A DNA stretch of 64,000 nt from an uncultured bacterium (GTDB lineage: Bacteria; Zhuqueibacterota; QNDG01; DSAB01), in NCBI GenBank assembly GCA_964651045.1, contig CAZYVD010000010.1, positions 828 through 64,827 on the forward strand, read 5' to 3'. Under the pieces are notes generated by a model. That model had not been told where the DNA came from. It was given only the letters and a program-made list of their open reading frames with translations, and ran no database searches. The translations under genes and the position numbers were made by a program. Positions 51,662-63,868 of the stretch are shown in pieces (position 1 is the first letter of the stretch; every line of letters begins with the position of its first letter).

Positions 51662-51712
51662 TATAGTTTGTAACAATGTAGAACCTATTATGATATATAT
51701 AAGGTTTAAATC

Positions 51713-52573
51713 ATGATCATTTCAATTGCAAGCGGAAAGGGTGGAACAGGAAAAACTACTGTTGCCACAAACCTTGCCTCCTCTATTTCAAACAGCAGTA
51801 TTACTTTCATCGACTGTGATGTAGAAGAACCCAACAGTCACCTCTTCCTCAGACCTGCTGTGGAAAAAGAACAGACATGCCTGACATTCATTCCGAAGGT
51901 CGATACAGAAAAGTGCACCCTTTGCGGCAAATGTTCAGAGCTGTGTCAATTCAAGGCCATAGTAAAAATTGCAGACACTATGCTTGTATTTCCTGAACTG
52001 TGTCATGGATGTGAAGGATGCAAATTGATCTGTCCGGTAGATGCAATTTCGGACGACCAGAAACAGATCGGTACGATATCGGTGGCAACCTCAGGCAGGA
52101 TTCGTTTTGTAGGCGGAAGGCTCAAAATCGGAGAGGCCCTTTCTCCACCACTTATCAGGGAGGTCATACAGACAGCATTAAAAGAAAATAAATCCGATAT
52201 AAATATTATCGATTCGCCTCCGGGTACTTCATGTCCTGTGATAGAATCTATTAAGGTATCAGATTTTGTTGTTCTTGTAACAGAGCCCACTCCCTTTGGA
52301 CTAAACGACCTCAGGCTGGCCGTAGAAACCGTCAGGGTTCTTGGAATTCCGTTCGGAGTTGTCATAAACAGATCAACAATCGGGAATAACAATATCACCA
52401 AATACTGTGATGAACAGTCAATTCCTATCCTCCTCGAGATACCAGACGACAGAAAGATTGCCGAGGCCTACTCAAGGGGATATCTAATTATTGATCATCT
52501 CCCCCAATACAAAAGCCATTTTGAGCTCCTATTAGATAATATAAAAAAGATCAGCGATTCCGATAAGGAGTAG
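51713..52573 (+). CDS. MinD/CobQ-like P-loop ATPase with two 4Fe-4S motifs
   Basis: SGKGGTGKT, DCDVEEPN, CTLCGKCSELC, CHGCEGCKLIC, DSPPGTSC, VTEPTPFG. Confidence 0.92.
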   Translation: MIISIASGKGGTGKTTVATNLASSISNSSITFIDCDVEEPNSHLFLRPAVEKEQTCLTFIPKVDTEKCTLCGKCSELCQFKAIVKIADTMLVFPELCHGCEGCKLICPVDAISDDQKQIGTISVATSGRIRFVGGRLKIGEALSPPLIREVIQTALKENKSDINIIDSPPGTSCPVIESIKVSDFVVLVTEPTPFGLNDLRLAVETVRVLGIPFGVVINRSTIGNNNITKYCDEQSIPILLEIPDDRKIAEAYSRGYLIIDHLPQYKSHFELLLDNIKKISDSDKE

Positions 52574-52580
52574 TAGATAG

Positions 52581-53441
52581 ATGAAAGAGATAGTGATAAT
52601 AAGTGGAAAGGGCGGAACAGGTAAAACAACAATCACCGCCTCCCTCGCATCCCTGATTCCCGATAAGGTTATTGCAGACTGTGATGTTGATGCTGCAGAT
52701 CTTCATCTTCTTCTCGATCCAGAGATTAAGGAGAGAAACGACTTTTATGGCGGTGTAAAGGCCTCAATAGATCTCGACAAGTGTACGGGCTGTGGCAGAT
52801 GTCTGGAAGTATGTAGATACGATGCAATATCTTCCGATTTTATAGTAAACGATATTAACTGTGAGGGATGCGGAGTATGTCCCTATTTTTGCCCTGAAGA
52901 TGCCATAACTCTTATCGACCGTCACTCGGGAGAATGGTATATCTCTGAAACAAGATTCGGACCAATGGTCCATGCAAGACTCGGAATAGCAGAAGAAAAT
53001 TCTGGAAAGCTGGTCAGCCTGATCAGGCGCCAGGCAAAAACCATTGCTGAGGATAGAGGGTTTGACACGATCCTTATAGACGGGTCGCCAGGAATAGGGT
53101 GCCCGGTAATAAGTTCTATCACAGGTGCATCAATAGTTGTTGTTGTTACAGAACCAACCATATCCGGAATACACGATCTTAAAAGAGTCATATCTTTAAA
53201 CCAGCACTTCAAGATAGAATCTGTAGTCTTAATCAACAAGTCGGACATAAACGAAGAGATGACAGGAAAGATAAGAAAAAGAGCTGAAGAACAGGGGATC
53301 GAAGTAATAGGTATGATTCCCTATGACCCTGTTGTCACAAGGGCAATGGTTCATAAAAAGACAGTTGTAGAATTTACAAACAGCAAAGTGGCAATGGAAA
53401 TCATCAAGGCAGGAGATGTGATTTTTAATAAAATAAGATAA
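52581..53441 (+). CDS. MinD/CobQ-like P-loop ATPase with two 4Fe-4S motifs, paralog
   Basis: SGKGGTGKT, DCDVDAAD, CTGCGRCLEVC, CEGCGVCPYFC, DGSPGIGC. Confidence 0.92.
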   Translation: MKEIVIISGKGGTGKTTITASLASLIPDKVIADCDVDAADLHLLLDPEIKERNDFYGGVKASIDLDKCTGCGRCLEVCRYDAISSDFIVNDINCEGCGVCPYFCPEDAITLIDRHSGEWYISETRFGPMVHARLGIAEENSGKLVSLIRRQAKTIAEDRGFDTILIDGSPGIGCPVISSITGASIVVVVTEPTISGIHDLKRVISLNQHFKIESVVLINKSDINEEMTGKIRKRAEEQGIEVIGMIPYDPVVTRAMVHKKTVVEFTNSKVAMEIIKAGDVIFNKIR

Positions 53442-53485
53442 TAAAGGAACTATATACAGCTTTCAGCGTTATGTATTAAGATATG

Positions 53486-53505
53486 TTTTGAGTATATGTT
53501 CAAAA
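53486..53505. promoter_or_regulatory. Palindromic operator, copy 2, directly before the DUF134 gene
   Basis: TTTTGAGTATATGTTCAAAA; same length and dyad core as copy 1. Confidence 0.65.
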
Positions 53506-53515
53506 CGAGGTTTTT

Positions 53516-53869
53516 ATGCCCCGACCAAAAAAATGCCGATGGATAAGCGCCCGACCAGGTGCTTCATTTTTCAAGCCACAGGGCATTCCGCTCAGAATGC
53601 TCGATCAGGTTTGTCTGGAGATGGATGAACTTGAGGCAATTCGCCTCGCAGATCTTGAAGGTCTCAGTCATGAACTCGCGGCAAAAAAGATGAATGTATC
53701 GAGAGCAACTTTCGGGCGAATAGTTGCAGGTGGCAGAAAAAAAGTAGCAGAAGCCCTCGTTGTAGGAAAGGCAATACGAATCGAGGGAGGAGAGGTAGAG
53801 CTGCGTCCTCCCCTTCCGATAGACTGGCCAGGGGGGCCTCATGGACGTGGAAAGGGACCATGGTTTTAA
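53516..53869 (+). CDS. DUF134 (UPF0251) putative DNA-binding protein
   Basis: MPRPKKCR...FKP.GIP...DELEAIRLADLEGLS...A.KMNVSRATFGRI...RKKVAEALV.GKAIRIEGG. Confidence 0.92.
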   Translation: MPRPKKCRWISARPGASFFKPQGIPLRMLDQVCLEMDELEAIRLADLEGLSHELAAKKMNVSRATFGRIVAGGRKKVAEALVVGKAIRIEGGEVELRPPLPIDWPGGPHGRGKGPWF

Positions 53870-53887
53870 TCTGAGGAACCGCAACCG

Positions 53888-54334
53888 ATGAAGAACAGAG
53901 AAGAAGATATATTCGAGAGGCTTGAAGCCTACTTTATGGGTCAGGCTTCTGAACGATTTTCAGAAAAAGTAATCTCGCTTGCCTATGATCCTATAAATGT
54001 TGGAGAAATAAAAAATCCTGATGGTCTCGGATTCATCAAAGGCCCATGCGGAGATAGAATGGCAATCTTTTTAAAAATTACAGAGGGAAAAATCTCGGAA
54101 GCAAAATTTCTTGCCGACGGATGCGGAGCCACAATAGCATGCGGCTGTGCTGTAACAGATCTGGCCATTGGGAAGAGCCCCATAGAGGCAGAATCGATAA
54201 ATGTTCTGGAGATACTGAGATATCTAAATGATCTTCCAGCTTCCCATGAACACTGTGCAGTACTCGCAGTGAATACTCTCAAAGAGGCTTTAAAAAACAT
54301 GAAAAAAATAGGTAGTTTAAAAATAAGGAGGTAA
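53888..54334 (+). CDS. IscU/NifU N-terminal-like Fe-S scaffold
   Basis: P.NVG, GPCGD, DGCG..IAC, HCA.LA: three conserved Cys. Confidence 0.88.
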   Translation: MKNREEDIFERLEAYFMGQASERFSEKVISLAYDPINVGEIKNPDGLGFIKGPCGDRMAIFLKITEGKISEAKFLADGCGATIACGCAVTDLAIGKSPIEAESINVLEILRYLNDLPASHEHCAVLAVNTLKEALKNMKKIGSLKIRR

Positions 54335-54337
54335 ATC

Positions 54338-54667
54338 ATGCCAAGAGGAGATGGAACAGGCCCCATGGGAATGGGACCAATGACAGGTAGGGCGGCCGGC
54401 TACTGCGCTGGCTACTCGGTGCCGGGATTCATGAATCCCTATGGAGGAAGATTTGGTGGAGGATTTGGCAGAGGAAGAGGATTTGGATGGAGAAGATGGG
54501 CTGGTTTTCCTTCGGCCTACCAGTATCCTCTTCCCTATGGAACAGGCTTTACTCAGGATCAGGAGATCGAACTCCTTCAAAATCATGCGAAGATATTGAA
54601 AGATCAGCTCGAGAACATCGAAAAACGGATCTCAGATCTTGAGAGCAAGTCAGCCAAAGAGGCATAG
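54338..54667 (+). CDS. DUF5320 family Gly/Arg-rich protein
   Basis: MPRGDGTGPMGMGPMTGRAAGYCAG, GRGRGFG, C-terminal coiled coil. Confidence 0.88.
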   Translation: MPRGDGTGPMGMGPMTGRAAGYCAGYSVPGFMNPYGGRFGGGFGRGRGFGWRRWAGFPSAYQYPLPYGTGFTQDQEIELLQNHAKILKDQLENIEKRISDLESKSAKEA

Positions 54668-54677
54668 TAGTTCATGA

Positions 54678-54709
54678 GGATCCCGGTGTTAGTAAAAACG
54701 CCGGGATCC
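54678..54709. repeat. GC-rich intra-operon hairpin followed by an A-tract
   Basis: GGATCCCGGTGTT...AACGCCGGGATCC followed by 10 A; not a canonical terminator on either strand. Confidence 0.6.
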
Positions 54710-54741
54710 AAAAAAAAAATTAAAAATGAGGATTAAAAGGC

Positions 54742-54993
54742 ATGCCGACCTATGAATATGAATGCACCGTATGCGGACACCGATTCACAAAATTTCAATC
54801 AATAAATGATGAGCCCGTAAAAAAATGCCCTGAGTGTTCTGGTAAGGTTAACAGGTTGATCTCTGGCGGAATGGGAGTGATATTCAAGGGCTCAGGATTT
54901 TATTCCACAGACTACAAGAAAAAGAGCAGCGGTGATTCATGCTGTAGTCAGGGAAATCAGTGCGAAAATCCAAAACGCTGCTGTGGAAGATAA
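54742..54993 (+). CDS. FmdB-family zinc ribbon protein with Cys-rich tail
   Basis: [11 protein letters not shown]...CPEC...[11 protein letters not shown]...SCC...C...CCGR. Confidence 0.88.
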
Positions 54994-55013
54994 TCTGCAG
55001 GCTGGATTATACC

Positions 55014-55394
55014 ATGTCTGTATCTATTGATAAAAATATCTGCAGGGGATGTGGAGTATGTATAGAAAGCTGTCCTGCTGGTGCCATCAAAATGGAGAGA
55101 ACTATTGTTGTTGACCCAGAAAAATGTACTGAATGCAGCAGATGTATGAATGCCTGCCCATTCGGTGCTATCACCTTACAGAACAACTCTCCTGCTGACA
55201 GACCGCATTCTCATTCTGAATCAGCACAAATATTTCTTCCAAATAGTACCAGAATCAAAGTCCAGAAACCCCTGCAACCGGATAAATCTTACAATGATTC
55301 GCTAAACGACCTTCGTGCTCAAAAGGAGAATCTCGAGAGACGCCTTGAAGAAGTTCAGAAGAGAATTGACAGATTAAAACATTGTTTAAAATAA
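55014..55394 (+). CDS. 2x[4Fe-4S] ferredoxin fused to a C-terminal coiled coil
   Basis: CRGCGVCIESCP, CTECSRCMNACP; tail LNDLRAQKENLERRLEEVQKRI. Confidence 0.85.
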   Translation: MSVSIDKNICRGCGVCIESCPAGAIKMERTIVVDPEKCTECSRCMNACPFGAITLQNNSPADRPHSHSESAQIFLPNSTRIKVQKPLQPDKSYNDSLNDLRAQKENLERRLEEVQKRIDRLKHCLK

Positions 55395-55410
55395 AGAAAG
55401 GAGGCATATT

Positions 55411-55638
55411 ATGCCAAGAGGAGATGGAACTGGTCCTGCAGGACAGGGCCCTGGAACAGGAAGAGGAATGGGAAGGGGAGGCGGAGGTAGAGGAAGAATG
55501 GGCGGTAATCGCCCTGGAGCAGGTCCTGGCGGAAGCTGTGTATGTCCAAGCTGCGGTGCAAAGGTAGTCCACAAACAGGGAGAGCCTTGCTATACAATCA
55601 GCTGTCCCCAATGTGGAGCAAAGATGATGAGAGAATAG
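55411..55638 (+). CDS. DUF5320-like Gly-rich protein with a Cys-rich zinc-finger-like C-terminus
   Basis: MPRGDGTGP...GRGRMGG...CVCPSCG...PC...CPQCG; SD AGGAGG. Confidence 0.82.
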   Translation: MPRGDGTGPAGQGPGTGRGMGRGGGGRGRMGGNRPGAGPGGSCVCPSCGAKVVHKQGEPCYTISCPQCGAKMMRE

Positions 55639-55650
55639 AGGAGAAAACAT

Positions 55651-56421
55651 ATGAAGATAGCCATAACCTCTCAGGGAACCGATCTGAATGCAGAAATCGA
55701 CCCTCGCTTTGGCAGATGTAGCTACTTTATCATCTACGATACTGAAAAGGAAAATTATGAGGTAGTTGAAAATTCGAGCATAAATCTTGGTGGTGGTGCA
55801 GGAATCCAGGCAGCCCAGACAATCTCTGAAAATGGAGTGAGAGTTCTGCTCACAGGCAATGTAGGACCAAACGCTTTTCAGACACTTTCTGCTGCATCCA
55901 TCGAAATATATACCGGCCTGAGTGGAAAAATTTCAGAAGTTGTAGAAAAGTTCAAGAGTGGGAACTTGGAAAAGAGTTCTGCCCCATCGGTGGATTCCCA
56001 TCACGGTTTGAACAAATCGCAGGCTTCGGTATCGGCCCAGGTGTCGAAAAAACGAATAGCAGTCGCCTCAGAAGATGACAGGGGGCTCGAATCAAACGTA
56101 AGCGCTCATTTTGGAAGATGCCCCTACTACACAATGGTCGAAGTCGAGGGTGACAGGATCGTACTCAGCTATAAGGTAGAGAATCCCTTTTTTCATGCAC
56201 ATGGACAGCCCGGTCAGGTTCCAACATTTATCCGTGACCAGGGATCCAATGTTATAATAGCCGGAGGCATGGGCCAGCGTGCCGTTGAATTTTTTAACCA
56301 GTTTGGAATAGAGGTAGTAACGGGTACAGCAAGAAAGGTAAACGATGTCGTGAACCAATACATTCAGGGAAGAATAAAGGGCTATACCCCCTGTGACCAC
56401 GAACATGAACCTTGTGATTGA
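55651..56421 (+). CDS. Tandem NifB/NifX (FeMo-cofactor-binding-like) domain protein
   Basis: Two repeats: RFGRCSYF...GGAG...GNVGPNA and HFGRCPYY...GGMGQRA; C-terminal CDHEHEPCD. Confidence 0.9.
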   Translation: MKIAITSQGTDLNAEIDPRFGRCSYFIIYDTEKENYEVVENSSINLGGGAGIQAAQTISENGVRVLLTGNVGPNAFQTLSAASIEIYTGLSGKISEVVEKFKSGNLEKSSAPSVDSHHGLNKSQASVSAQVSKKRIAVASEDDRGLESNVSAHFGRCPYYTMVEVEGDRIVLSYKVENPFFHAHGQPGQVPTFIRDQGSNVIIAGGMGQRAVEFFNQFGIEVVTGTARKVNDVVNQYIQGRIKGYTPCDHEHEPCD

Positions 56422-56468
56422 TTAACCCAATCTATGGAATAAAAATTAAGGGAAAGGAAATAGTCTCT

Positions 56469-57293
56469 ATGAATAAGGATCAGGAAAAAGTTAAGACAAT
56501 GGAAGAACAGAACCGCCGAATCGACGAAAATTTAAAAAAGATAAAACACAGGATAGTCATATTCAGCGGCAAAGGAGGAGTCGGCAAGAGTACAGTTGCC
56601 GTGAATTTAGCCTACTCACTCACGCTTAAGGGGCTTAAAGTCGGCCTTTTAGATGCAGACATCACAGGGCCAAACATACCAAAAATGATCGGTCTCAAAG
56701 GATTTCCGAGAATCGACCCGGAAGAAAAAAACATTCTTCCCCAAGAAAAAGACGGGTTATATGTTATCTCTATCGCCCCAATGGTTCCTCAGGATGCTCC
56801 TGTCATCTGGCGTGGGCCGCTGCGATCCGGCGCAATTACTCAATTTCTATCAGATGTGGTCTGGGGAGATCTTGACTTTCTACTTGCAGATCTTCCACCC
56901 GGCACAGGAGACGAGGTCTTGACTACTGCTCAGAAAATGATTCCTCAAATGGCAATAATAGTAACGACTCCGCAGGAGGTATCCCTGATAGACTGCCGAA
57001 GGGCAGTAAACATGGCAAAGAAGCTGAATATCGGGAAAATAGGCGTTGTGGAAAACATGTCGGGTCTTCTCTGTCCGCACTGTGGAAAAGAGATTGATCT
57101 GTTCGATTCTGGCGGTGGTGAAAAGATGGCAAACGAGATGGGGGTCACATTTCTTGGCCGAATTCCCATTGAGATCGAAACTCGCAAAGGAGGCGATTCG
57201 GGAAATCCTGTTGTCCTCTCAAACAAGAAAAGCGGTACTGCCGACTCGTTTGCTCTGATTGCAGAAAATACAATAAAACTCGTATCACTGTGA
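56469..57293 (+). CDS. mrp: Mrp/NBP35 (ApbC-like) Fe-S carrier ATPase
   Basis: SGKGGVGKS, LDADITGP, VIWRGP, DLPPGTGD, TTPQ, ENMSG..CPHC. Confidence 0.93.
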   Translation: MNKDQEKVKTMEEQNRRIDENLKKIKHRIVIFSGKGGVGKSTVAVNLAYSLTLKGLKVGLLDADITGPNIPKMIGLKGFPRIDPEEKNILPQEKDGLYVISIAPMVPQDAPVIWRGPLRSGAITQFLSDVVWGDLDFLLADLPPGTGDEVLTTAQKMIPQMAIIVTTPQEVSLIDCRRAVNMAKKLNIGKIGVVENMSGLLCPHCGKEIDLFDSGGGEKMANEMGVTFLGRIPIEIETRKGGDSGNPVVLSNKKSGTADSFALIAENTIKLVSL

Positions 57294-57299
57294 TGAAAA

Positions 57300-57935
57300 A
57301 TGAGCAGACAAATGGAAAATAAAATTCATCAGAAAAAACAACCTCTCCCAACATGCGACCTGTGCAAATCGAAAAAATGTAGGGAGGGAGAAGACTGCTT
57401 CTCCATGTCCAACCAGATAGTTTCAGAATATACAGGAGATAGACTCAAACTTGCACGAGTCTCATCTATGATCGAGGGCAGATACTATATGAAAAAGACC
57501 CGTCTGGAGGAGATAATTCTTTTTTCAAATGAAATGGGATACAAGAGGCTTGGGATCGCATTCTGTATTGGACTTTCCGATGAGGCAAGTATGCTTGCCA
57601 AACTTCTCAGAGACAAATTCGAGGTCGTTTCTGTATGCTGCAAGGTTTGCGGAATAGAGAAAAGTTATTTTAACTTCGAGAAAATAGATCCCGGAAGTGC
57701 TGAGTCGATGTGCAATCCAATAGGCCAGGCAATCCTTCTCAATAGTGCAGAGACCGATCTAAATATCATCTGCGGACTTTGCATTGGTCACGATATACAA
57801 TTCACACAATTTTCAAAGGCTCCTGTAACAACCTACATCGTCAAAGACCGCCTGCTTGCCCACAACACTGCAGGCATGCTCTACTGCGGATATTTGAAAA
57901 AAAGAATCCAAAAAAACGGCAGGAGAGAGAAATGA
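57300..57935 (+). CDS. DUF1847 domain protein
   Basis: C..C...C..GEDC, TRLEE, GIAFCIGL, CCKVCG, CNPIGQA, GLCIGHD, KDR.LAHN. Confidence 0.9.
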   Translation: MSRQMENKIHQKKQPLPTCDLCKSKKCREGEDCFSMSNQIVSEYTGDRLKLARVSSMIEGRYYMKKTRLEEIILFSNEMGYKRLGIAFCIGLSDEASMLAKLLRDKFEVVSVCCKVCGIEKSYFNFEKIDPGSAESMCNPIGQAILLNSAETDLNIICGLCIGHDIQFTQFSKAPVTTYIVKDRLLAHNTAGMLYCGYLKKRIQKNGRREK

Positions 57936-58960
57936 CAGAAATAGTATCTGTTATCAAACATTCATTAATGATAACAACGTTTGTCTTTGTAATGATGCTG
58001 ATAGTAGACTACATCAATGTCATCACATCAGGACGGTTATCGGTTTTAATGAAAGGAGGAAAATGGCGGCAGTACATGACAAGCTCCTTTTTAGGTGCAA
58101 CTCCTGGCTGTCTCGGATCATTCATGAATGTCTCATTCTATGTACATGGACTCATAGGTTTCGGGGCGATCGTGGGAGGAATGATTGCAACATCTGGGGA
58201 CGAGGCCTTTGTCATGCTTACCCTCTTTCCTGGAAAAGCGCTTATCCTCTTTGGACTTCTGATGATAATGGGCATTATATTTGGGTTTGTAGCCGACAGG
58301 ATCGCAAGTGTTCTTAAAATCACACCGTGCCAGGAGTGCGACCTTCAACAGATACATACAATCGAAACCTGTCAGTGTTTTGATAAAACCGAGCTTTCCA
58401 AAAACTTTTTTAATATATCCATCCAACGAGCAGTACTTGTTCTCGGTACAGTTATTATCATTGTTGCACTGACAACAGGGATCATCGGACCCGAGGAGTG
58501 GAACTGGGAGAAAGTCACACTGACGATTCTCGTGGCTGTGGCTGCAGTCATTGTGGGAAGTGTACCCAATCATTATCTCAGAGAACACATCTGGGATCAT
58601 ATTGTAAGAAAACATCTTTGGAAAATCTTTCTCTGGTCACTACTTGCACTCTTTGTTATAAACATTGGGTTAGAACACTGGAACCTGGAATCCTTTATCA
58701 AGAGTCACATGGGGTGGGTGCTCATCATCAGTGGTATTGCCGGAATCATCCCTGAATCCGGTCCGCACATGATTTTTGTCATAATGTTTGCTCAGGGTCT
58801 AATCCCATTCTCTGTGCTTCTTACGAGTTCTTTTGTTCAGGACGGCCATGGAATGCTGCCGCTTCTATCCTATTCAGTAAGGGATTCTGTGATGATCAAG
58901 GCCTTTAATCTTGTTTTTGGACTCGTGGTCGGTGGACTGCTCTTCGCAATCGGATGGTAG
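57932..58960 (+). CDS. Putative manganese/metal transporter (DUF2899-like)
   Basis: LGATPGCLG, IATSGDEAFVM, IPESGPH, QDGHGMLPLL; multiple TM segments. Confidence 0.8.
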   Translation: MTEIVSVIKHSLMITTFVFVMMLIVDYINVITSGRLSVLMKGGKWRQYMTSSFLGATPGCLGSFMNVSFYVHGLIGFGAIVGGMIATSGDEAFVMLTLFPGKALILFGLLMIMGIIFGFVADRIASVLKITPCQECDLQQIHTIETCQCFDKTELSKNFFNISIQRAVLVLGTVIIIVALTTGIIGPEEWNWEKVTLTILVAVAAVIVGSVPNHYLREHIWDHIVRKHLWKIFLWSLLALFVINIGLEHWNLESFIKSHMGWVLIISGIAGIIPESGPHMIFVIMFAQGLIPFSVLLTSSFVQDGHGMLPLLSYSVRDSVMIKAFNLVFGLVVGGLLFAIGW

Positions 58961-58978
58961 ACAGGAGTCGGAATAGAT

Positions 58979-59932
58979 ATGATAATATTCGGCCCAGTTC
59001 CATCCAGAAGACTCGGAAGAAGCCTTGGAATAAACAACATACCATACAAGGCATGTACATATTCATGCATCTACTGCCAGCTTGGAAAAACCAAAAAGTT
59101 AACTGCAGAGCCTCAGCAATATTACGATCCAGAACAGATTCTTACCATGACAGCAGATTCAGTAGATAAATTACAAGAAAATAAAGAGCATATAGACTAC
59201 ATCACCTTTGTTCCTGATGGAGAACCCACTCTCGATATTAATCTTGGAAGAGAGATAGAGCTGCTCAAGGGGCTTGGGATAAAAGTTGCCGTGATAACAA
59301 ATTCCTCTCTTATATGGAGAGATGATGTGCGGCAAAGGCTTTCAAAGGCCGATCTGGTATCTTTGAAGGTAGACTCATTAACAGAACAGTCGTGGCACAG
59401 AATCAACAGGCCGCATCCTCTTCTCAATATCGATGATATTAAAGAATCTATGATCTCATTTGCAAAGGATTACCGCGGCACCATTATAACAGAGACCATG
59501 CTTGTGGGCGGAATAAATGATGACTTAGAAGAGATAAAAAGGATAGGTGAATTCTTGTTAAAGCTCAGGCCCAAAACCGCATATCTCTCTATTCCAACAC
59601 GTCCTCCAGCAGAAAAATGGGTCAAGAGTCCGAGTCCTGCCCTACTCGCCCAGTCATTTAAGACTCTAAAGGATTCAGGCCTCTTTCCAGAATATCTAAC
59701 AGAATACGAGGGAAATCTTTTCTCGAAAAGAAATGACCTCAGAGAAGACCTTTTAAGCATTACTTCAGTCCATCCCATGCGCGAGGAGGGTGTTAGAGAA
59801 TTTCTGTTAAAAAATGACGGTGACTGGTCACTGGTAGATGAACTCATTAGAGACGGGCTTATTGTTAAAAAAGAATATGATGGGAAGATCTTTTATCGCA
59901 GAAGATTTTCAGGGAATGACAAAAAACTTTAA
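58979..59932 (+). CDS. Radical SAM protein
   Basis: FGPVPSRRLGRSLGIN, CTYSCIYC, GEPTL. Confidence 0.93.
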   Translation: MIIFGPVPSRRLGRSLGINNIPYKACTYSCIYCQLGKTKKLTAEPQQYYDPEQILTMTADSVDKLQENKEHIDYITFVPDGEPTLDINLGREIELLKGLGIKVAVITNSSLIWRDDVRQRLSKADLVSLKVDSLTEQSWHRINRPHPLLNIDDIKESMISFAKDYRGTIITETMLVGGINDDLEEIKRIGEFLLKLRPKTAYLSIPTRPPAEKWVKSPSPALLAQSFKTLKDSGLFPEYLTEYEGNLFSKRNDLREDLLSITSVHPMREEGVREFLLKNDGDWSLVDELIRDGLIVKKEYDGKIFYRRRFSGNDKKL

Positions 59933-59942
59933 AAGAGGAAAA

Positions 59943-60389
59943 ATGAAAAACAAAAAAGAGAATAAACTAAAAAGGCTGGCAAGATCATTCTACGGTGCAT
60001 TAAAGAGCCTCGGCTTTGCACTGCCTGCCATTGTAGTAGTGATTCTTTTAACCGGTCTTTTCAGGACATTCATCTCAAAAAAGATGATAGTGTCGATATT
60101 CAGTGGACATGGACTGCTCGATACACTGGTTGGATCAATATCAGGCAGCATATCTGCAGGCAACCCGATCACAAGTTATATAATCGGAGGAGAACTTTTA
60201 AAAAACAGTGTGAGCCTCTTTGCAGTCACCTCATTCATTGTGGCATGGGTCACTGTGGGAATAATCCAGCTCCCTGTGGAGTCTGCATTCCTCGGTAAAA
60301 GATTTGCCGTTGTGCGAAACGGCGTAAGTTTTATCCTCTCTATTCTCGTATCGATTGCTACGGTACTGACATTGAGGACAATCTCATGA
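59943..60389 (+). CDS. Small permease (DUF318/ArsP-like, half-size)
   Basis: GSISAGNPITSYIIGGELL..GV-type motif, QLPVE..FLGKRFAV.RN. Confidence 0.72.
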   Translation: MKNKKENKLKRLARSFYGALKSLGFALPAIVVVILLTGLFRTFISKKMIVSIFSGHGLLDTLVGSISGSISAGNPITSYIIGGELLKNSVSLFAVTSFIVAWVTVGIIQLPVESAFLGKRFAVVRNGVSFILSILVSIATVLTLRTIS

Positions 60390-60922
60390 AAAACAATAAA
60401 CCTGAAAACGCAAAGAAAAAAACCAGAAAGGGAAATTACAGGTACTACCTTCTCCTCGCCAGCCTCTTCCTTTATGCGATCCTTTTTATTTTAAAACCAG
60501 AAGATACACTGAAGGCAATGAAGACTTCCCTTGCCACATTGATTCAGATCGTTCCGATCCTTCTCGGAGTCATACTTTTCATGGGAATGTTCAACTACTT
60601 TATAAATCCTAAAAAACTTTCATATTATCTCGGAAAAGAATCCGGAGTCAAGGGATGGTTTCTTGCAGTATCTGCAGGAGTTTTAAGCCACGGCGCAATT
60701 TATGTGTGGTACAGCCTGTTAAAAGAGTTGAGGGAACATGGAATGAGGAGCGGTCTGGCTGCAGTCTTTCTGTACAACAGGGCAATAAAGATTCCCTTCA
60801 TACCAGTCATGGTATATTACTTTGGAATCAAGTATGTAATTGTACTGCTTCTCTATATGATAATCTTGTCTGTGTTAGAAGGAAAAATTGTGGAGGTATT
60901 AATAGATGAAAAAACTCACTAA
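60386..60922 (+). CDS. Small permease (DUF318/ArsP-like partner)
   Basis: LGKESGVKGW, GVLSHGAIYVWY.LL.EL...GM, FLYNRAIKIP; overlaps the previous gene by 4 bp. Confidence 0.7.
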   Translation: MKNNKPENAKKKTRKGNYRYYLLLASLFLYAILFILKPEDTLKAMKTSLATLIQIVPILLGVILFMGMFNYFINPKKLSYYLGKESGVKGWFLAVSAGVLSHGAIYVWYSLLKELREHGMRSGLAAVFLYNRAIKIPFIPVMVYYFGIKYVIVLLLYMIILSVLEGKIVEVLIDEKTH

Positions 60923-61613
60923 TATTAACTTCATCATCGATGCAATTCTATTCATCATTGTAATGGCAATGGGTGGAATCGGATTTCTGATGAAATTCAT
61001 ACTTATCCCCGGTACTGAACGCTGGGATGTCTATGGAAGCAATGTTGAGCTCAAACTCTGGGGATGGGACAGACACCAGTGGGGGTCTCTTCATCTCATT
61101 CTAGGATATGTTTTCCTCGCTCTTCTTCTGCTTCACATCATCCTCCACTGGAATCAGATCAAATGTATTTTCAATAATATGGTTAGAAGAAGGGCTCACA
61201 GAGTAATCATTACACTTATCTTTTTAATATTGAGCCTTGTTGTTTTTCTCTTCGCATTCTTTGTTCCATTTGACGTAATTGCTGTTGAAAGCGGGCAGGG
61301 AAGGAAAATAGAACCCCAAGACCAAATTAAAACGCACTCCCAGCAGTCAATAAAAGATTCGCAAGAGAAATCATCAAGAAGCAGTGGAAAACAGAAAGGT
61401 CAAAACAGGACTGTAATGGTCAATGGATCAATGACCCTTGAAGAAGCTGGAGAAAAATATCGAATACCTGCAGACACCCTTAAAAGATTGCTCAACATCC
61501 CGCCCGAAACATCCAGTAGCCAGAGACTCGGAATACTGAGAAAAATGTACGGCTTTCGCATGAGCGATGTTGAGCGCTCAATCGAAAAATATATAGAATC
61601 AAAAAGAGAGTAA
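60906..61613 (+). CDS. DUF4405-like membrane protein
   Basis: WGSLHLILG...LHIILHW (His in TM helices); C-terminal GSMTL.E...Y.IP domain. Confidence 0.78.
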   Translation: MKKLTNINFIIDAILFIIVMAMGGIGFLMKFILIPGTERWDVYGSNVELKLWGWDRHQWGSLHLILGYVFLALLLLHIILHWNQIKCIFNNMVRRRAHRVIITLIFLILSLVVFLFAFFVPFDVIAVESGQGRKIEPQDQIKTHSQQSIKDSQEKSSRSSGKQKGQNRTVMVNGSMTLEEAGEKYRIPADTLKRLLNIPPETSSSQRLGILRKMYGFRMSDVERSIEKYIESKRE

Positions 61614-61624
61614 AAAATTGAGCT

Positions 61625-62266
61625 ATGAAAATAACCATAATATATGACAACACACAGCATCAGGAAGAGCTTCAGCCCGACTGGGGTTTTTCAGCTCTTG
61701 TTGAACTCGATAACAACTCTAAAATACTATTCGATGCAGGAGCAGATGGCTTGATCCTTCTATCCAATATGGAAAAACTCGGAATAGATCCTAAATCAAT
61801 TAGTACTGTATTCATCTCCCATGCACATTACGACCATATAGGTGGACTTTCAACTTTCCTCAATACCAATAATGATGTAAGGGTATTTGTACCTGTTTCA
61901 CTAAAGGGAATCCACAGAGCAAGAGAGGTGATCTCCATAGTAGGTCCAATGGAAATAGGCGAAAATCTATTCTCAACAGGCGAGCTGGATAGAATCGAAC
62001 AGTCTCTTGTTGTAAGAATCGAAAAAGGAGTCCTGCTCATAGTTGGCTGCTCGCATCCTAAGATGGAACACATCTTCAGTGCCGCCGAACAATATGGAAA
62101 TATTCGCGCAATAGTTGGAGGCATGCATGGACTGAGGAAATTTGATCTGTTCAGAGATTTAGAGCTCATCTGCCCCACACATTGCACACAGAACAAGGAT
62201 GAAATAGAATATATGTTTCCTAAAAAGTATATAGAAGGCGGAGCAGGAAAGGTTATATCATTTTAA
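61625..62266 (+). CDS. MBL-fold metallo-hydrolase
   Basis: WGFS.L, LFDAG, SHAHYDHIGG, GCSHP, GGMH, PTHCT. Confidence 0.9.
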   Translation: MKITIIYDNTQHQEELQPDWGFSALVELDNNSKILFDAGADGLILLSNMEKLGIDPKSISTVFISHAHYDHIGGLSTFLNTNNDVRVFVPVSLKGIHRAREVISIVGPMEIGENLFSTGELDRIEQSLVVRIEKGVLLIVGCSHPKMEHIFSAAEQYGNIRAIVGGMHGLRKFDLFRDLELICPTHCTQNKDEIEYMFPKKYIEGGAGKVISF

Positions 62267-62293
62267 TCCTGATATCATAGAAAGGAGCAAACC

Positions 62294-62737
62294 ATGAAAA
62301 GAATTGGCATTATCATTTGCGCAAGATATCAGTCGTGCGGAGGAGGAAAATGCCTGAGGTCAATGCGCGAACATGTTGGTGCTTTCTCTATTTATCCAGA
62401 AGATGAAAAATTAGAACTCGTTGGTTATTCATACTGCGGAGGTTGTCCAGGGGGAAATGTGGAATATGTTCCTGAAGAGATGATAAACAATGGTGCAGAA
62501 GTAATCCACCTTGCAACAGGACTAGTTGTGGGATATCCTCCGTGTCCGAGGATAAGACAATTTAAAGAATTCATCGAGTCAAATTATAAAATTCCGGTTG
62601 TCATTGGAACACATCCAATTCCCCTGAAGTACTGGGATGCACATAAGAAGCTCTCATTCTGGAAAAAGATGAAAATGGAAAAGATTGCTACAACCCTTAT
62701 GGAAGAAGATAAAAAAATCATGGAAGCATATAATTAA
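62294..62737 (+). CDS. CGGC domain protein
   Basis: CGGGKC, CGGCPG, IHLATG...YPPCP, GTH. Confidence 0.9.
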   Translation: MKRIGIIICARYQSCGGGKCLRSMREHVGAFSIYPEDEKLELVGYSYCGGCPGGNVEYVPEEMINNGAEVIHLATGLVVGYPPCPRIRQFKEFIESNYKIPVVIGTHPIPLKYWDAHKKLSFWKKMKMEKIATTLMEEDKKIMEAYN

Positions 62738-62776
62738 TAGATACTCATCTTACTATCACCATGAAAGGAATGAATA

Positions 62777-63844
62777 ATGGAGATGAAAAATCTTAAACTA
62801 TTCGAGAAAGACCTCGATAGATGCATTCGCTGCGCTTACTGTTTCGAAGGATGTCCTGTATATAAAGAACTTGAATGGGAAACAGACAGTCCGAGAGGCA
62901 AAATGGTAATTGCCTATGGACTGCTTACAGGAGAATTAGAGGTTTCAGATTATGTTGTTGAAAAACTTTTTCAGTGCACATTTTGCAAGGATTGTATAGA
63001 GAGATGTTCTGCTCATGTTTCAGTACCAGATATTATTGCAGCAGCACGTAGCGACCTTTTTAATGAGGGCTATTCATACAACTCTCATAAGTCTCTTCTG
63101 GATAAAATCGAAATGAGCGGAAACATCTTTGGTAAAAGGCTCGAATCACCACCAACGGATGGAGAGAAGACAGTGCTGCTTGGCTGCAGACTTCTCGACA
63201 GGAAATCGGACGCACAAAAATACCTCTTAATTCTCGAAAAACTTGGCATAAAACCAAAAACCTTTGATGAGACCTGCTGCGGAATGCCATTTGCCGTTCT
63301 TGGCGATAAAAATGGTTTTTCCAGACAGCAGGATAAATTCACTGAATCGATACCAGACAGAAAGGAAGAGATACTCTGCGTCTGTACAACATGTGCATTC
63401 TTTATTCAAAAAAAATATCCCGATTTAAGGTCAAAATATATCATAAATGAAATTATTGAAAGATTATCTAAATTTAAAAATAACATAAAAAAATTAAACA
63501 TGACAGTTACATATCACGATCCGTGCAATGTTGCAAGAGGCCTTGGCATGGTGGATCAGCCCAGATGGCTTCTTGAAAAGATCGGAGTCAATTTGGTAGA
63601 GATGGCAACTTATGGAATGGAGGCAGAGTGCTGTGGTGGCGGAGGAGGTGTGCTTGTTACAGATAAAAAGTTATCGGAGGCCATGGCCGATCATCGGATA
63701 AGACAGGCAATCGAAACAGGTGCAGAATATCTTGTAACTCTCTGCCCAACCTGTGAACTAAACCTCCACAATGCGGCAGAAAGGGCTGGGGGAAAACTAA
63801 AAGTTAAAAATGTGCTCGACCTTGTATACGATGCACTTGTTTGA
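62777..63844 (+). CDS. HdrD/GlpC-like Fe-S oxidoreductase (2x4Fe-4S plus CCG domains)
   Basis: CIRCAYCFEGCP, CTFCKDCIERC, TCCG, YHDPC, CCGGGGG, CPTC. Confidence 0.9.
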   Translation: MEMKNLKLFEKDLDRCIRCAYCFEGCPVYKELEWETDSPRGKMVIAYGLLTGELEVSDYVVEKLFQCTFCKDCIERCSAHVSVPDIIAAARSDLFNEGYSYNSHKSLLDKIEMSGNIFGKRLESPPTDGEKTVLLGCRLLDRKSDAQKYLLILEKLGIKPKTFDETCCGMPFAVLGDKNGFSRQQDKFTESIPDRKEEILCVCTTCAFFIQKKYPDLRSKYIINEIIERLSKFKNNIKKLNMTVTYHDPCNVARGLGMVDQPRWLLEKIGVNLVEMATYGMEAECCGGGGGVLVTDKKLSEAMADHRIRQAIETGAEYLVTLCPTCELNLHNAAERAGGKLKVKNVLDLVYDALV

Positions 63845-63868
63845 TATTCTTTGTAAAGTTTATCATTA

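Follow-up and report, generated by a model that had tools for sequence, protein, structure and literature searches.

A predicted 19-gene operon with a probable DUF134 regulator and a candidate role in Fe-S or metal-sulfide cluster handling

A cluster of 19 co-oriented genes in the DNA of an uncultured anaerobe is, on balance, probably a DUF134-controlled operon for an enlarged form of the Fe-S or metal-sulfide cluster handling associated with the Desulfovibrio ORP (orange protein) complex and the Pyrococcus protein IssA. The cluster occupies positions 51713-63844 of the analysed stretch of 64 kb (hereafter the window). Its genes, designated g1 to g19, and the associated signals are listed below; domains were assigned by Pfam and NCBIfam profile searches.

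51612-51667, + strand: promoter-like region with two overlapping elements (consensus scan)
51642-51661, no strand assigned: predicted operator on the promoter, 20-bp palindrome TTACGAGCATATGCTCATAA, candidate DUF134 site
51713-52573, + strand: g1, MinD/CbiA-type P-loop ATPase with an inserted 2x[4Fe-4S] ferredoxin domain (Pfam CbiA, Fer4)
52581-53441, + strand: g2, MinD-Fer4 ATPase, 2x[4Fe-4S], paralog of g1 (36% identity)
53516-53869, + strand: g3, DUF134 (UPF0251) helix-turn-helix protein (Pfam DUF134, 85 bits)
53888-54334, + strand: g4, Fe-S scaffold of the IscU/NifU-N type (Pfam NifU_N, 83.7 bits)
54338-54667, + strand: g5, DUF5320 protein, Gly/Arg/aromatic-rich N-terminal 70 aa and C-terminal coiled coil (Pfam, 110.6 bits)
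54742-54993, + strand: g6, FmdB-family Zn-ribbon protein with Cys-rich tail (Zn_ribbon_8; TIGR02605, 73.9 bits)
54960-55394, + strand: g7, 2x[4Fe-4S] ferredoxin with C-terminal coiled-coil tail (Pfam Fer4 family)
55411-55638, + strand: g8, 75-aa protein, Gly/Arg-rich N-terminus (N-terminal motif) and CxCxxC-H-C-CxxC module
55651-56421, + strand: g9, tandem NifX-fold (Nitro_FeMo-Co) protein (Pfam, 165 bits, two stretches)
56418-57293, + strand: g10, Mrp/NBP35-type Fe-S carrier ATPase (NF041136 positions 1-250, 322.7 bits)
57300-57935, + strand: g11, DUF1847 protein with nine invariant cysteines (Pfam, 179.9 bits)
57932-58960, + strand: g12, ArsP_2 10-TM permease of the arsenic-efflux-protein family (Pfam ArsP_2, 116.8 bits)
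58979-59932, + strand: g13, radical SAM enzyme (Pfam Radical_SAM; CTYSCIYC motif)
59877-60389, + strand: g14, N-terminal half of a split ArsP_1-type permease (Pfam ArsP_1 16-130/294, below cut-off)
60386-60922, + strand: g15, C-terminal half of the split ArsP_1-type permease (Pfam ArsP_1 213-293/294)
60906-61613, + strand: g16, DUF4405 membrane protein with cytochrome-b561-like helices and a soluble tail (Pfam, 49.6 bits)
61625-62266, + strand: g17, small metallo-beta-lactamase-fold (MBL) protein (Pfam Lactamase_B; PDB 7dck, E 1e-34)
62294-62737, + strand: g18, CGGC-domain protein (Pfam CGGC, 90.9 bits)
62777-63844, + strand: g19, HdrD/GlpC/TfrB-like protein, 2x[4Fe-4S] and two CCG domains (Pfam CCG, 93.9 bits; Fer4_8)
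63869-63897, + strand: terminator-like hairpin directly 3' of g19, 11-bp stem with 7 G-C pairs

The coordinates and common strand of the 19 genes were reproduced by an ORF check of the window. Successive intergenic distances are 7, 74, 18, 3, 74, -34, 16, 12 and -4 nt from g1 to g10, and 6, -4, 18, -56, -4, -17, 11, 27 and 39 nt from g10 to g19, so that the largest gap is 74 nt. Genes on the 5' side lie on the - strand, as do the converging genes on the 3' side, seen in a longer version of this contig (L001), on which g7 (with an alternative ATG at 55014) and g14 are also called as genes. Among the terminator-like sites of 50600-64000, the hairpin behind g19 is listed first and is the richest in G-C. 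From the tight spacing, the opposite-strand flanks and the terminal hairpin we infer that g1-g19 form a single predicted operon. The domain assignments of the original prediction were recovered with the exception of the label of g12, and the absence of cysteine desulfurase and nitrogenase genes was borne out by domain searches, which found neither cysteine desulfurase nor nif genes in the 64-kb window. Catalytic and ligand motifs of the cluster products are intact (motif check). The statement that nearly every product is Cys/His-rich was overstated, with g5, g10, g13, g14 and g15 containing 2.2% Cys+His or less.

The promoter-like region consists of TTGACT-17-TATCTT (51612-51640) and, overlapping it, TTGTTA-17-TATAGT (51639-51667), both from the consensus scan; no sigma54 -24/-12 element was found there on the + strand. 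The palindrome (core GAGCATATGCTC) occurs once in the window. Related loci have their -35 (TTGACA-type) and -10 (TATAAT-type) boxes at the equivalent position, immediately 5' of the palindrome. Its exact 12-mer turns up 12 more times in the loci retrieved, compared with 0-1 times in shuffles, and the palindrome is conserved across phyla. Its 18-nt core was found at least 120 times in metagenomes. At 57 of 80 sampled metagenome sites a DUF134 gene follows directly downstream, the median distance to its start codon being 19 nt; among operator-bearing genome loci, about half lack a DUF134 gene in the DNA retrieved. Since the core so often stands directly upstream of DUF134 genes, DUF134 is probably an autoregulatory repressor of the operon or regulon that would bind the palindrome, as their co-localisation suggests. 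The g3 protein gives a weak Sigma70_r4_2 match in Pfam, and many of its homologs have a Cys4 ribbon and a Gly/Arg tail. Genes linked to the operator elsewhere encode ZIP, CDF and ArsP_2 proteins (the g12 type adjoins it in L149 and L159), ArsR-type regulators and DUF364 'heavy-metal chelation' proteins. The palindromic operator on the promoter is new in this analysis.

The core of the cluster resembles the ORP complex, with its two ferredoxin-domain MinD ATPases, a NifX-fold protein and, here split, MrpORP (ORP composition and MrpORP motifs from PMC6345978). The Orp3/Orp4-like proteins g1 and g2 are probable heterodimer partners; both have a ferredoxin insert for two [4Fe-4S] clusters and, besides it, two more conserved cysteines. 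In g1 (GKGGTGKT and two CxxCxxCxxxC motifs) these are Cys35 and Cys174, which 97% of 61 homologs share. [quoted passage not shown] The P-loop half of MrpORP corresponds to g10 (GKGGVGKS; CPHC as the CxxC motif), which scores higher with the MrpORP model than with ApbC (248.7 bits, NCBIfam); MrpORP is divided here between g10 and the second domain of g9. In the scaffold g4 the CGD, GCG and HC ligand motifs were found and LPPVK was not (motif check). The tail of g7 is weakly similar to the C-terminus of DUF5320.

Published work on the relatives bears on this likeness. MrpORP transfers Fe-S to Orp3-Orp4-Orp8 in vitro, and the cluster bound by its Di-Nase domain is [3Fe-4S] rather than Mo-Cu. Expression of the orp operons is confined to low redox potential. 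Five neighbouring genes of M. voltae (Mvol_0689, 0691, 0692, 0693 and 0698) are all 2.3-5x up on FeS2; they encode one radical SAM protein, a pair of NifX-like proteins and a pair of FeS 'cobyrinic acid a,c-diamide synthase' proteins. The original interpretation, in which such sets have no assigned pathway, is partly supported: the core does have known relatives, being homologous to the ORP complex and MrpORP and related to IssA, and Fe-S or metal-cluster handling stands as the most coherent reading.

Cationic Gly/Arg(/aromatic)-rich segments are present in g5, in g8 and in the tail of g3. The motif MPRGDGTGP at the N-terminus of g8 is common to g5 and g8, and the six Cys and His54 of g8 are conserved in 35-36 of 36 homologs. 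By composition alone, residues 1-70 of g5 (21 Gly, 7 Arg+Lys, 13 Phe/Trp/Tyr, 8 Pro, 1 Cys, pI 10.3) resemble the 70-aa tail with which the Fe-S storage protein IssA binds thioferrate (15 Gly, 7 cationic, 14 aromatic, 11 Pro, 1 Cys, pI 10.7; PMC5524996). This match between DUF5320 and the IssA tail is new in this analysis, and IssA shares domain IPR003731 with the NifX-fold protein of the cluster. Gly/Arg-rich segments are also typical of nucleic-acid binders, and the analogy is therefore one of composition.

Recurrence was assessed around the NifX gene in loci of 80 genomes at species level, 67 of them bacterial and 13 archaeal MAGs. Similar gene sets do recur in anaerobes, as originally claimed: the MinD-Fer4 pair adjoins the NifX gene in 59-60 of the 80 loci, and 12 of the 19 families recur beside it, nearly all co-stranded. 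Co-stranded and no more than 6 kb from NifX were MinD-Fer4a (59 loci), MinD-Fer4b (56), g8-like (39), DUF5320 (37), Mrp (37), MBL (27), radical SAM (21), NifU_N (21) and DUF134 (19). Counted per locus, MBL was present in 35, radical SAM in 30, NifU_N in 24 and FmdB in 12. The closest neighbour is the g8-like gene (39/80, median 597 nt). Hit density was 26 per 51 kb vs 1 per 51 kb in the remaining window. Fusions comprise Mrp+NifX (seven loci; also in P0104), NifX+DUF5320 (three), NifX+MinD-Fer4 (two), MinD-Fer4 a+b (one) and Fd+DUF5320 (one, L057). Inheritance of all 19 genes as a block is contradicted, the richest sampled locus having 11 of the 19 families. DUF1847, ArsP_2, the two split ArsP_1 halves, DUF4405 (0/80), CGGC and HdrD-like are rare beside NifX (0-4/80). 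These seven families are lineage-specific add-ons, and their functional coupling to the core is therefore weak.

The nitrogenase cofactor is made along a NifU-NifB-NifX-NifEN/NifH pathway, and the cast of the cluster (scaffold, radical SAM, NifX-fold carriers, NifH-class ATPases) resembles it. Dedicated assembly of one complex metallocofactor, the main reading of the original prediction, in which the radical SAM enzyme would act on a NifX-bound precursor and the HdrD-like or CGGC protein would be the client, is nevertheless unlikely, in spite of the frequency of radical SAM and MBL genes and of the suspicion of the M. voltae authors that the radical SAM genes of that locus serve cofactor biosynthesis. 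The g13 enzyme conserves only the three SAM-cluster cysteines, without auxiliary-cluster cysteines, and had no NifB match, its best weak matches being viperin (47.7 bits) and PflA (NCBIfam); g9 falls far below the NifX cut-off (21.6 vs 112 bits). A nitrogenase-type line is thus not supported. Many loci have the core without a radical SAM gene. HdrD-like is absent from 79 of the 80 loci (>8 kb away in the other) and CGGC from 76, so there is no conserved client, and no evidence singled out g19 (best NCBIfam match TfrB, 161 bits, below the cut-off of 385) or g18 as such.

The permeases bring up thiometallates (Mo, W, Cu). Native D. gigas orange protein holds a Mo-Cu sulfide cluster, [S2MoS2CuS2MoS2]3-, not Fe-S, and the NifX-fold proteins might likewise sequester Mo/W-Cu sulfide clusters while the permeases export, as part of heavy-metal or metalloid handling or detoxification in sulfidic habitats. 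The libraries label g12, formerly taken for a putative Mn transporter, 'arsenic efflux protein'/ArsP_2 (NF037962, 136.6 bits, cut-off 100); g14 and g15, whose frames overlap by 4 nt, are ArsP_1 permease halves, and the CDF, ZIP, ArsR-type and DUF364 genes at the operator elsewhere fit as well. We still judge this distinctly unlikely: the cluster contains no Mo/W transporter, molybdopterin, ArsR, ArsC, ArsM or ArsA genes, transporters are among its least conserved parts (1-4/80), the IscU scaffold and Mrp carrier indicate Fe-S, and so does the [3Fe-4S] cluster of the Di-Nase domain.

It is hardly probable that the transcript is a composite, with g1-g10 as the ORP-like unit and g11-g19 as unrelated redox and transport genes sharing strand and read-through. 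The rarity of the seven downstream families near NifX genes would agree with this, as would the different downstream genes of close relatives (ARMT1, methyltransferase, OsmC, Pyr_redox_2). Against it, gaps from g10 to g19 are at most 39 nt, with four overlaps, and no internal terminator was found there; some downstream families are directly linked to the operator; and in distant genomes genes for DUF1847, CGGC, MBL, radical SAM, ArsP_2 and DUF4405 again accompany those for Mrp, NifX or MinD-Fer4, in varying orders (L009, L013, L048, L062, L090-L092). In other genomes DUF1847 genes adjoin those of MinD-Fer4, Mrp or CGGC, CGGC accompanies DUF1847, Mrp or NifX genes in L007, L009, L062, L091 and L092, and DUF4405 is found in the close relatives L005 and L009. 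In g11, C19, C22, C27, C33, C89, C113, C114, C138, C161, H164, D165 and H188 are invariant, and its structure model is confident, yet no solved structural relative was found; g17 has HAHYDH and invariant C142, H144, H168, H186 and C187.

Least probable of all is a MinD-like positioning or cell-division module with the Fe-S domains as mere redox sensors, which was the original proposal for the ORP complex, whose published phenotype is morphological and division-related: g1 and g2 are of the MinD/ParA class, lost orp expression causes morphological defects, and MrpORP is at the cell pole in D. vulgaris, but the morphological defects could be secondary to an Fe-S defect, MinC, MinE and other division genes were not found nearby, metal/Fe-S proteins and transporters dominate the gene context in Bacteria and Archaea, and the homologous M. 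voltae locus responds to the iron/sulfur source.

The best reading is thus a regulated system for trafficking or storage of Fe-S or metal-sulfide clusters. Points that weigh against it are the want of a cysteine desulfurase gene nearby to supply sulfur, and the Mo-Cu rather than Fe-S cluster of native orange protein. The IscU-like protein and an Mrp dimer would be the assembly sites of Fe-S units, which would be passed on to the NifX-fold domains of g9. The g1/g2 heterodimer, spending ATP and low-potential electrons (via its own ferredoxin domains and g7), may drive loading, fusion or release of the bound clusters, by analogy with NifH-class ATPases serving NifEN, and the cationic Gly/Arg/aromatic segments of g5 and g8 may stabilise anionic iron-sulfide as the IssA tail does thioferrate. 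DUF134 on the operator over the transcription start would maintain repression until a metal, sulfide or redox signal arrives. To the same transcript the lineage would have recruited DUF1847, ArsP_2, radical SAM, the split permease, DUF4405, MBL, CGGC and the HdrD-like protein as accessories, which may serve in metal or sulfur transport, redox or modification.

The stretch between 51713 and 63844 is filled by 19 open reading frames on the + strand (g1-g19, in order), and every domain that the original prediction had named in them was reproduced by Pfam and NCBIfam.

Table. Products of the cluster at 51713-63844 (+), in gene order
g1, g2: P-loop ATPases of the MinD/CbiA type, into which a 2x[4Fe-4S] ferredoxin domain is inserted (Pfam, NCBIfam)
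g3: DUF134 (Pfam)
g4: NifU_N/IscU-like (PF01592, 83.7 bits)
g5: DUF5320 (Pfam)
g6: FmdB Zn ribbon (Pfam, NCBIfam)
g7: 2x[4Fe-4S] ferredoxin with a coiled-coil tail
g8: 75 aa, DUF5320-type N-terminus and a Cys6His module
g9: two Nitro_FeMo-Co (NifX-fold) domains (two PF02579 stretches, 165 bits)
g10: Mrp/NBP35 (Pfam ParA/NUBPL, PF10609, 312 bits)
g11: DUF1847
g12: ArsP_2
g13: radical SAM (PF04055, 49.9 bits)
g14, g15: ArsP_1 permease in two halves
g16: DUF4405
g17: small MBL-fold protein
g18: CGGC
g19: HdrD/GlpC-like, two CCG domains (CCG 93.9 bits, two stretches)

The motifs expected of these families are intact across the cluster (deviant Walker A, CxxCxxCxxxC, CPHC, IscU ligands, Cx3Cx2C, HxHxDH, CGGC and CC). 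The g12 product, previously taken for a Mn transporter, was placed by the libraries among the ArsP_2/arsenic-efflux-family permeases, and the statement that nearly every product is rich in Cys and His is too broad, as five of them are not. The absence of a cysteine desulfurase and of nitrogenase genes was confirmed: neither an Aminotran_5 protein (IscS/NifS/SufS type) nor any nif gene was found in the cluster or anywhere in the 64-kb window. Gaps between the genes range from -56 to +74 nt. The upstream neighbours lie on the opposite strand, as do the genes past g19, which are visible in a longer version of this contig (L001, ENA ERZ27248172), and g19 is directly followed by a terminator-like hairpin (63869-63897), the top-listed and most G-C-rich of the region.

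The composition of the cluster is only slightly above that of its neighbours, no tRNA or sign of a mobile element was detected in the window, and an Rfam scan of the whole window returned zero RNA families at the gathering score. The remainder is ordinary chromosome (priA, grpE-dnaJ-dnaK-clpB, a Bat-type operon, a ZnuA-type transporter and RND pumps). The host, an anaerobe, has not been cultured; among genomes, the closest relatives of g9 and g11 are in a Candidatus Latescibacterota MAG (64% identity) and a KSB1 bacterium (68%), respectively.

Table. Other features observed in the window
7796-12800 (+): two large ORFs of 690 and 971 aa, nearly devoid of Pfam signal; an OmpA-like C-terminus is all that was recognised in the second
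18190-18495 (+): another gene for an FmdB-type Zn ribbon (98 bits to g6), the sole cluster-family match outside the cluster, between dnaJ (17131-18177) and dnaK (18544-20454) in the grpE-dnaJ-dnaK-clpB heat-shock block
24839-34177 (+): Bat (aerotolerance)-type operon with MoxR AAA_3, DUF58, two ORFs lacking a Pfam match at E<=1e-10, BatA, VWA protein, TPR, BatD and TPR, which fits an anaerobe meeting oxygen
34819-38926 (-): ZnuA-type binding protein and two ABC-3 permeases, with no adjoining ATPase gene recognised, then a 439-aa ORF (37607-38926) lacking a Pfam match at E<=1e-10
39528-40577 (-): sigma54 activator core with no obvious sensor domain
40701-48386 (-): two tandem AcrB-like RND pumps (1020 and 1081 aa) and one membrane-fusion protein
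51276-51291 and 51426-51441 (-): two sigma54-type -24/-12 elements (TGGTATCTAATTTGCA and TGGTATAACAATTGCA) in the spacer that also precedes the cluster, directed away from the cluster at a lipoprotein-like gene (50637-51158)

The cluster had been described as a set of genes for handling Fe-S or metal clusters, with no assigned pathway. Both parts of this description stand, but the set does have kin, namely the orange protein (ORP) complex of Desulfovibrio, the Mrp plus Di-Nase protein MrpORP, and the Fe-S storage protein IssA. In the D. vulgaris ORP complex Orp3 and Orp4 are similar MinD-like proteins with two [4Fe-4S] motifs each, Orp5 is small and has a homolog that binds a [2Fe-2S] cluster, Orp8 is an orange-protein homolog and Orp9 is MrpORP (PMC6345978). 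What the window has in common with this system is, first, the pair g1/g2, paralogous MinD-type ATPases of ~31 kDa that each bear two [4Fe-4S] motifs. It also shares an orange-protein homolog of the NifX fold (domain 1 of g9), a CxxC-bearing carrier of the Mrp/NBP35 type (g10), a Di-Nase domain in which HFGxC and CDH are present (domain 2 of g9), and confinement to anaerobes. The g1 and g2 products (286 aa each, 36% mutual identity, GKGGTGKT and two CxxCxxCxxxC motifs apiece) appear to fit the published description of Orp3 and Orp4 (DVU2103 and DVU2104). The first domain of g9 aligned over the full domain length with the D. gigas orange protein (PDB 2wfb, E 8e-22) and over its full length with MTH1175 too; it is one half of a two-domain protein, whereas Orp8 is a single-domain NifX-fold protein. 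The best NCBIfam score of g10 was obtained with the MrpORP model NF041136 (322.7 bits, positions 1-250, vs 248.7 for ApbC), and positions 251-364 of the same model matched g9 domain 2 with 115.6 bits. Both scores are below the 450-bit cut-off of the fused protein; the two halves of MrpORP reside on separate polypeptides, thus MrpORP is present but split. Fused versions occur in relatives. The motifs that the discoverers of MrpORP tied to a [3Fe-4S] cluster in Di-Nase (CxHFGHCE and a terminal CDH) have the equivalents SAHFGRCP and PCDHEH in g9.

The two systems also differ. ORP is encoded by two divergent three-gene operons, whereas the window has a single co-directional 19-gene operon with about a dozen genes beyond the ORP set, and in the window the Di-Nase part of the split MrpORP is fused to the Orp8-like domain. 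In place of OrpR and sigma54 promoters the cluster has a DUF134 regulator and a palindromic operator: no -24/-12 element with <=2 mismatches was found on the + strand upstream of g1, no enhancer-binding protein adjoins the cluster, and the nearest Sigma54_activat gene is 11 kb off. Unlike the orange protein and MTH1175, which have Ala at this position, g9 carries a cysteine (Cys23) in the RFGRC motif of domain 1. This residue is invariant in 23 tandem-NifX homologs, and its replacement by Ala in the other two proteins hints that cluster binding in the g9 subfamily may be covalent rather than non-covalent. MrpORP hands Fe-S clusters to Orp3-Orp4-Orp8 in vitro, and expression of the orp operons is confined to very low redox potential.

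Conserved Cys and His residues were also found in other products. In homologs of g1 (MinD-Fer4a) Cys35 and Cys174 are kept in 97%, and in homologs of g2 (MinD-Fer4b) Cys34 is kept in 78%, Cys174 in 93% and His131 in 100%; by analogy with NifH, CooC and Mrp, these extra residues could form an inter-subunit site. The six cysteines and His54 of g8 are retained in 35-36 of 36 homologs, DUF1847 has nine invariant cysteines, g17 conserves its His/Asp motif together with Cys142 and Cys187, and in g13 the SAM-cluster cysteines are the only conserved ones. A Foldseek search of the PDB with the AlphaFold model of DUF1847 (pLDDT 87.8) gave no match at E <= 0.001, and only generic Rossmann-like folds with TM <= 0.35. 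PDB sequence relatives were not found for g3, g11, g13 or g18, nor was a publication on PDB entry 7dck found in the literature.

The co-inheritance of the 19 genes was examined with a tandem-NifX profile. Among species-representative genomes it detected 598 relatives, and the 80 best loci, which belong to MAGs from many phyla (13 archaeal, 67 bacterial), were translated in six frames and searched with the 19 window proteins.

Table. Loci (of 80) with a family member on the same strand, <=6 kb from the NifX gene
MinD-Fer4a: 59/80
Further NifX-fold ORF: 57/80
MinD-Fer4b: 56/80
g8-like: 39/80 (median distance 597 nt)
DUF5320: 37/80
Mrp: 37/80
MBL: 27/80
Radical SAM: 21/80
NifU_N: 21/80
DUF134: 19/80
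Ferredoxin: 10/80
FmdB ribbon: 10/80
ArsP_2: 4/80
CGGC: 3/80
DUF1847: 2/80
ArsP_1 halves: 1/80 each
DUF4405: 0/80
HdrD-like: 0/80

The NifX loci contain 26 family matches per 51 kb, compared with one in the 51 kb that make up the rest of the window. At most 11 of the 19 families were present in any one genome locus, and the window is the largest version of the neighbourhood among the about 170 loci examined. The 19-gene block is thus confirmed as an observation, but it is not a set inherited in fixed form: elsewhere the set is modular. No dedicated client was apparent, and the role of clients proposed for the HdrD-like and CGGC proteins is not borne out. DUF1847, CGGC, MBL, radical SAM, ArsP_2 and DUF4405 recur beside Mrp, NifX and MinD-Fer4 genes in differing orders. 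The rare families were encountered in a close relative (L009), in Thermoplasmata, Methanocellaceae and Caldisericota MAGs (L013, L048, L062), next to core genes on two further contigs, and in Methanolobus halotolerans (L090), where the order is NifX-NifX-MinD-Fer4a-MinD-Fer4b-DUF1847-MBL with Mrp and DUF134 divergent. Several families also occur fused to one another: Mrp+NifX (7 cases), NifX+DUF5320 (3, plus the protein P0079, above the Pfam cut-off), NifX+MinD-Fer4 (2), DUF134+g8 (2), and one each of MinD-Fer4 a+b, ferredoxin+DUF5320 and NifX+g8. These fusions support physical cooperation of the products.

Close relatives of the cluster adjoin oxidative-stress genes in two loci: a divergent Fe/Mn superoxide dismutase lies beside the cluster in L005 (7455-8177), and Pyr_redox_2 and OsmC are within it in L007 (8615-11311).

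The original prediction made no mention of an operator, and we add here a 20-bp palindrome (TTACGAGCATATGCTCATAA, 51642-51661), which is unique in the window. It is located in the 555-nt region upstream of g1, directly 3' of a TTGACT-17-TATCTT promoter-like site and inside the spacer of a second such site. Its 12-nt core had 12 further exact sites in 1.25 Mb of loci collected for other reasons, where shuffled versions gave 0-1, and nine more sites were found in the same 1.25 Mb when one mismatch was allowed. Core sites lie just 5' of the first gene of ORP-like clusters in Latescibacterota, Caldisericota, Ignavibacteria, Zixibacteria, Clostridia and delta-proteobacterial MAGs, and just 5' of such a cluster in a Pacearchaeota MAG. 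An unbiased metagenome scan with TWTGAGCATATGCTCAWA yielded at least 120 stretches, of which 80 loci were examined. At least one cluster family was present in 66 of these 80; the operator adjoined some cluster family at 63 sites, and at 57 sites a DUF134 gene was immediately downstream. The typical unit consists of the operator, DUF134 and a NifX-fold gene, followed by Mrp, CGGC, radical SAM, DUF5320 or the MinD-Fer4 pair. In one locus (L171) the families of g1-g11 are present and the gene order of the window is kept at least through DUF5320. The median distance from the operator end to the DUF134 start codon is 19 nt (7-33 nt in 46 of 53 cases), and clear -35 and -10 hexamers are found just 5' of the operator, thus the operator covers the transcription start. 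This geometry is the layout of an autoregulated repressor, with DUF134 as the predicted binder. A single-sequence model of DUF134 (pLDDT 53) was too poor for a structure search; it shows three central helices. Reading the palindrome as a riboswitch or RNA hairpin was rejected: where a variant differs at one position, the opposite arm shows no compensating change, and conservation is of the sequence as such, which argues for a DNA site. A literature search for the operator motif, DUF134 (UPF0251, COG1342), DUF1847, DUF5320 and CGGC found nothing relevant.

The same operator elsewhere precedes ZIP and CDF metal transporters, ArsP_2, an ArsR-type regulator, ARMT1, Pyr_redox_2 with NifU_N, and DUF364/DUF4213, and these linked genes indicate metal homeostasis as the theme of the regulon. 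The DUF364+DUF4213 proteins ('putative heavy-metal chelation') are absent from the window; their occurrence in DUF134-operator units (L123 1632-2366, L112, L105 and L134) makes them a candidate further member of the regulon. A diverged NifX-fold subfamily with a His/Gly-rich insert (...HHRGQQQHHHHGEGKGGGGNGH...), missed by phmmer with g9 and found by Pfam PF02579, directly follows DUF134 under the same operator (L099 4168-4722, L159, L126, L096 and L119).

IssA, with which Pyrococcus furiosus stores Fe-S as thioferrate, has the same globular domain as g9 (IPR003731/PF02579); it binds the thioferrate in polymeric form and forms nanoparticles. Its 70-residue tail (15 Gly, 7 cationic, 14 aromatic, 11 Pro and the only Cys of the protein, pI 10.7) is proposed to wrap around the anionic thioferrate. 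In IssA this tail is on the same polypeptide, whereas g9 ends with ...TPCDHEHEPCD, without a tail, and a ~70-residue cationic Gly/Arg/aromatic, Pro-containing segment with a single Cys is found in the separate DUF5320 protein g5, which has a coiled coil (residues 1-70: 21 Gly, 7 cationic, 13 aromatic, 8 Pro, 1 Cys, pI 10.3). The resemblance of the g5 segment to the IssA tail is one of composition. Unlike IssA, g9 has conserved Cys/His ligands, which suggests that it may hold discrete clusters rather than a polymer. The N-terminus MPRGDGTGPxG is common to g5 and g8; the C-terminal coiled coils of g7 and g5 are weakly similar (pairwise E 0.006, a hint only). The search for DUF5320 homologs returned >7800 relatives and no functional name among them. 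Of 73 collected DUF134 homologs, 29 (about a third) are longer than 140 aa; all 12 inspected extended tails contain a Cys4 ribbon, in most cases together with a Gly/Arg(/Trp) tail, and g3 itself ends with ...WPGGPHGRGKGPWF.

Taken together, the evidence best supports a mechanism in which Fe-S or metal-sulfide clusters are trafficked or stored, under regulation, on carriers of the NifX fold; we attach moderate confidence to this function. The carriers would be served by the IscU-like scaffold, the Mrp carrier and the pair of ferredoxin-domain ATPases, under control of the DUF134 repressor; the regulatory link to DUF134 is held with greater confidence than the function. Four rivals are considered less likely, each with specific evidence against it. 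A dedicated cofactor assembly line would resemble nitrogenase cofactor maturation (NifU, NifB, NifX/NafY, NifEN, NifH), which likewise combines a scaffold, a radical SAM enzyme, a NifX-fold carrier and an Fe-S SIMIBI-class ATPase. However, the window lacks nifHDK, nifEN and nifB, g13 has no auxiliary clusters, the ATPases are of the MinD-Fer4 type instead of NifH, and g9 scores 21.6 bits with the NifX equivalog TIGR02663 (cut-off 112), so that a nitrogenase-like system was rejected. Handling of thiometallates or heavy metals would suit the arsenic-efflux-family permeases, but an ars operon was considered and rejected, and ArsP genes are rare among the 80 NifX loci. Cell division is a function assigned to the ORP complex only 'putatively' (PMC6345978), and the other genes under the operator point to metals; the Orp proteins associate physically, and the phenotype described for them is morphological. 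Against a composite transcript, the rare families are more than random passengers.

In g10 GKGGVGKS (51-58) and CPHC (219-222) correspond to the deviant Walker A and CPHC motifs common to the Mrp/NBP35/ApbC family (Nbp35-Cfd1 of the eukaryotic CIA pathway, ApbC and Ind1), in which the CPHC-type motif bridges a [4Fe-4S] cluster; g10 differs in being closer to the MrpORP subfamily than to ApbC and in its setting within a NifX/MinD-Fer4 operon. The g4 scaffold has the ligands C54-G-D56, G-C79-G and H122-C123 and stays under every equivalog cut-off (NifU_clost 93 vs 188), and a canonical ISC/SUF operon was rejected, there being no adjoining cysteine desulfurase. The best equivalog of g19 is TfrB (161 bits, cut-off 385), thus its two [4Fe-4S] motifs and two CCG domains place it in the HdrD/GlpC/TfrB group at family level only. 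In g13 the radical SAM motif CTYSCIYC is at 26-33, with no NCBIfam subfamily match.

A comparable neighbourhood, known for FeS2-induced 'IssA-like' proteins, exists in Methanococcus voltae (Mvol_0689-0698), with two NifX-like genes, two FeS-motif CbiA-type genes and radical SAM enzymes; one of the latter is NifB-like, a type that the window lacks. In cells grown on pyrite vs Fe(II)/sulfide, the radical SAM protein Mvol_0698, the NifX-like Mvol_0689 and Mvol_0693, and two proteins annotated as FeS-motif 'cobyrinic acid a,c-diamide synthase' (Mvol_0691 and Mvol_0692) were 2.3-5-fold up. From annotation and gene order we infer that Mvol_0691 and Mvol_0692 are MinD-Fer4 proteins.

A bolder proposal, which we consider rather unlikely, is that the cationic modules of DUF134, DUF5320 and g8 type share one anionic iron-sulfide ligand and that the regulon is a widespread, ATP-driven Fe-S reserve of anaerobic Bacteria and Archaea. 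The ligand would be thioferrate-like chains or clusters; the mineral would be nucleated by NifX-fold domains, wrapped in trans by the DUF5320 and g8 tails in the manner of the IssA tail, loaded and mobilised by the Orp3/4-like ATPase and Mrp, and sensed directly by DUF134, leading to derepression of the operon. Gly/Arg-rich segments can bind nucleic acids as well; since, in addition, the likeness to IssA is compositional, the idea of a common ligand was kept apart from the main claim. If true, the ORP complex would gain its missing function and four domains of unknown function would be given roles.

To our knowledge the role of PF02579 outside nitrogenase is unsettled, IssA has been described from one archaeon, and no biochemical function has been assigned to the ORP complex since 2011. 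The window joins ORP, MrpORP and IssA-like features in one neighbourhood, and DUF5320, DUF1847 and the g8 family are nominated for anaerobic Fe-S/metal-sulfide metabolism. PF02579 is among the best genomic markers of anaerobes, being present in 65% of anaerobes vs 7.6% of aerobes (PMC13386939). The interest of the cluster lies less in its gene list than in the operator and in the suggested link between ORP, IssA, DUF134 and DUF5320. The operator spans phyla, is sharply defined and linked to DUF134, and makes the function of ORP directly testable: the signal that frees DUF134 from TTATGAGCATATGCTCATAA should reveal the physiological role of the whole regulon.
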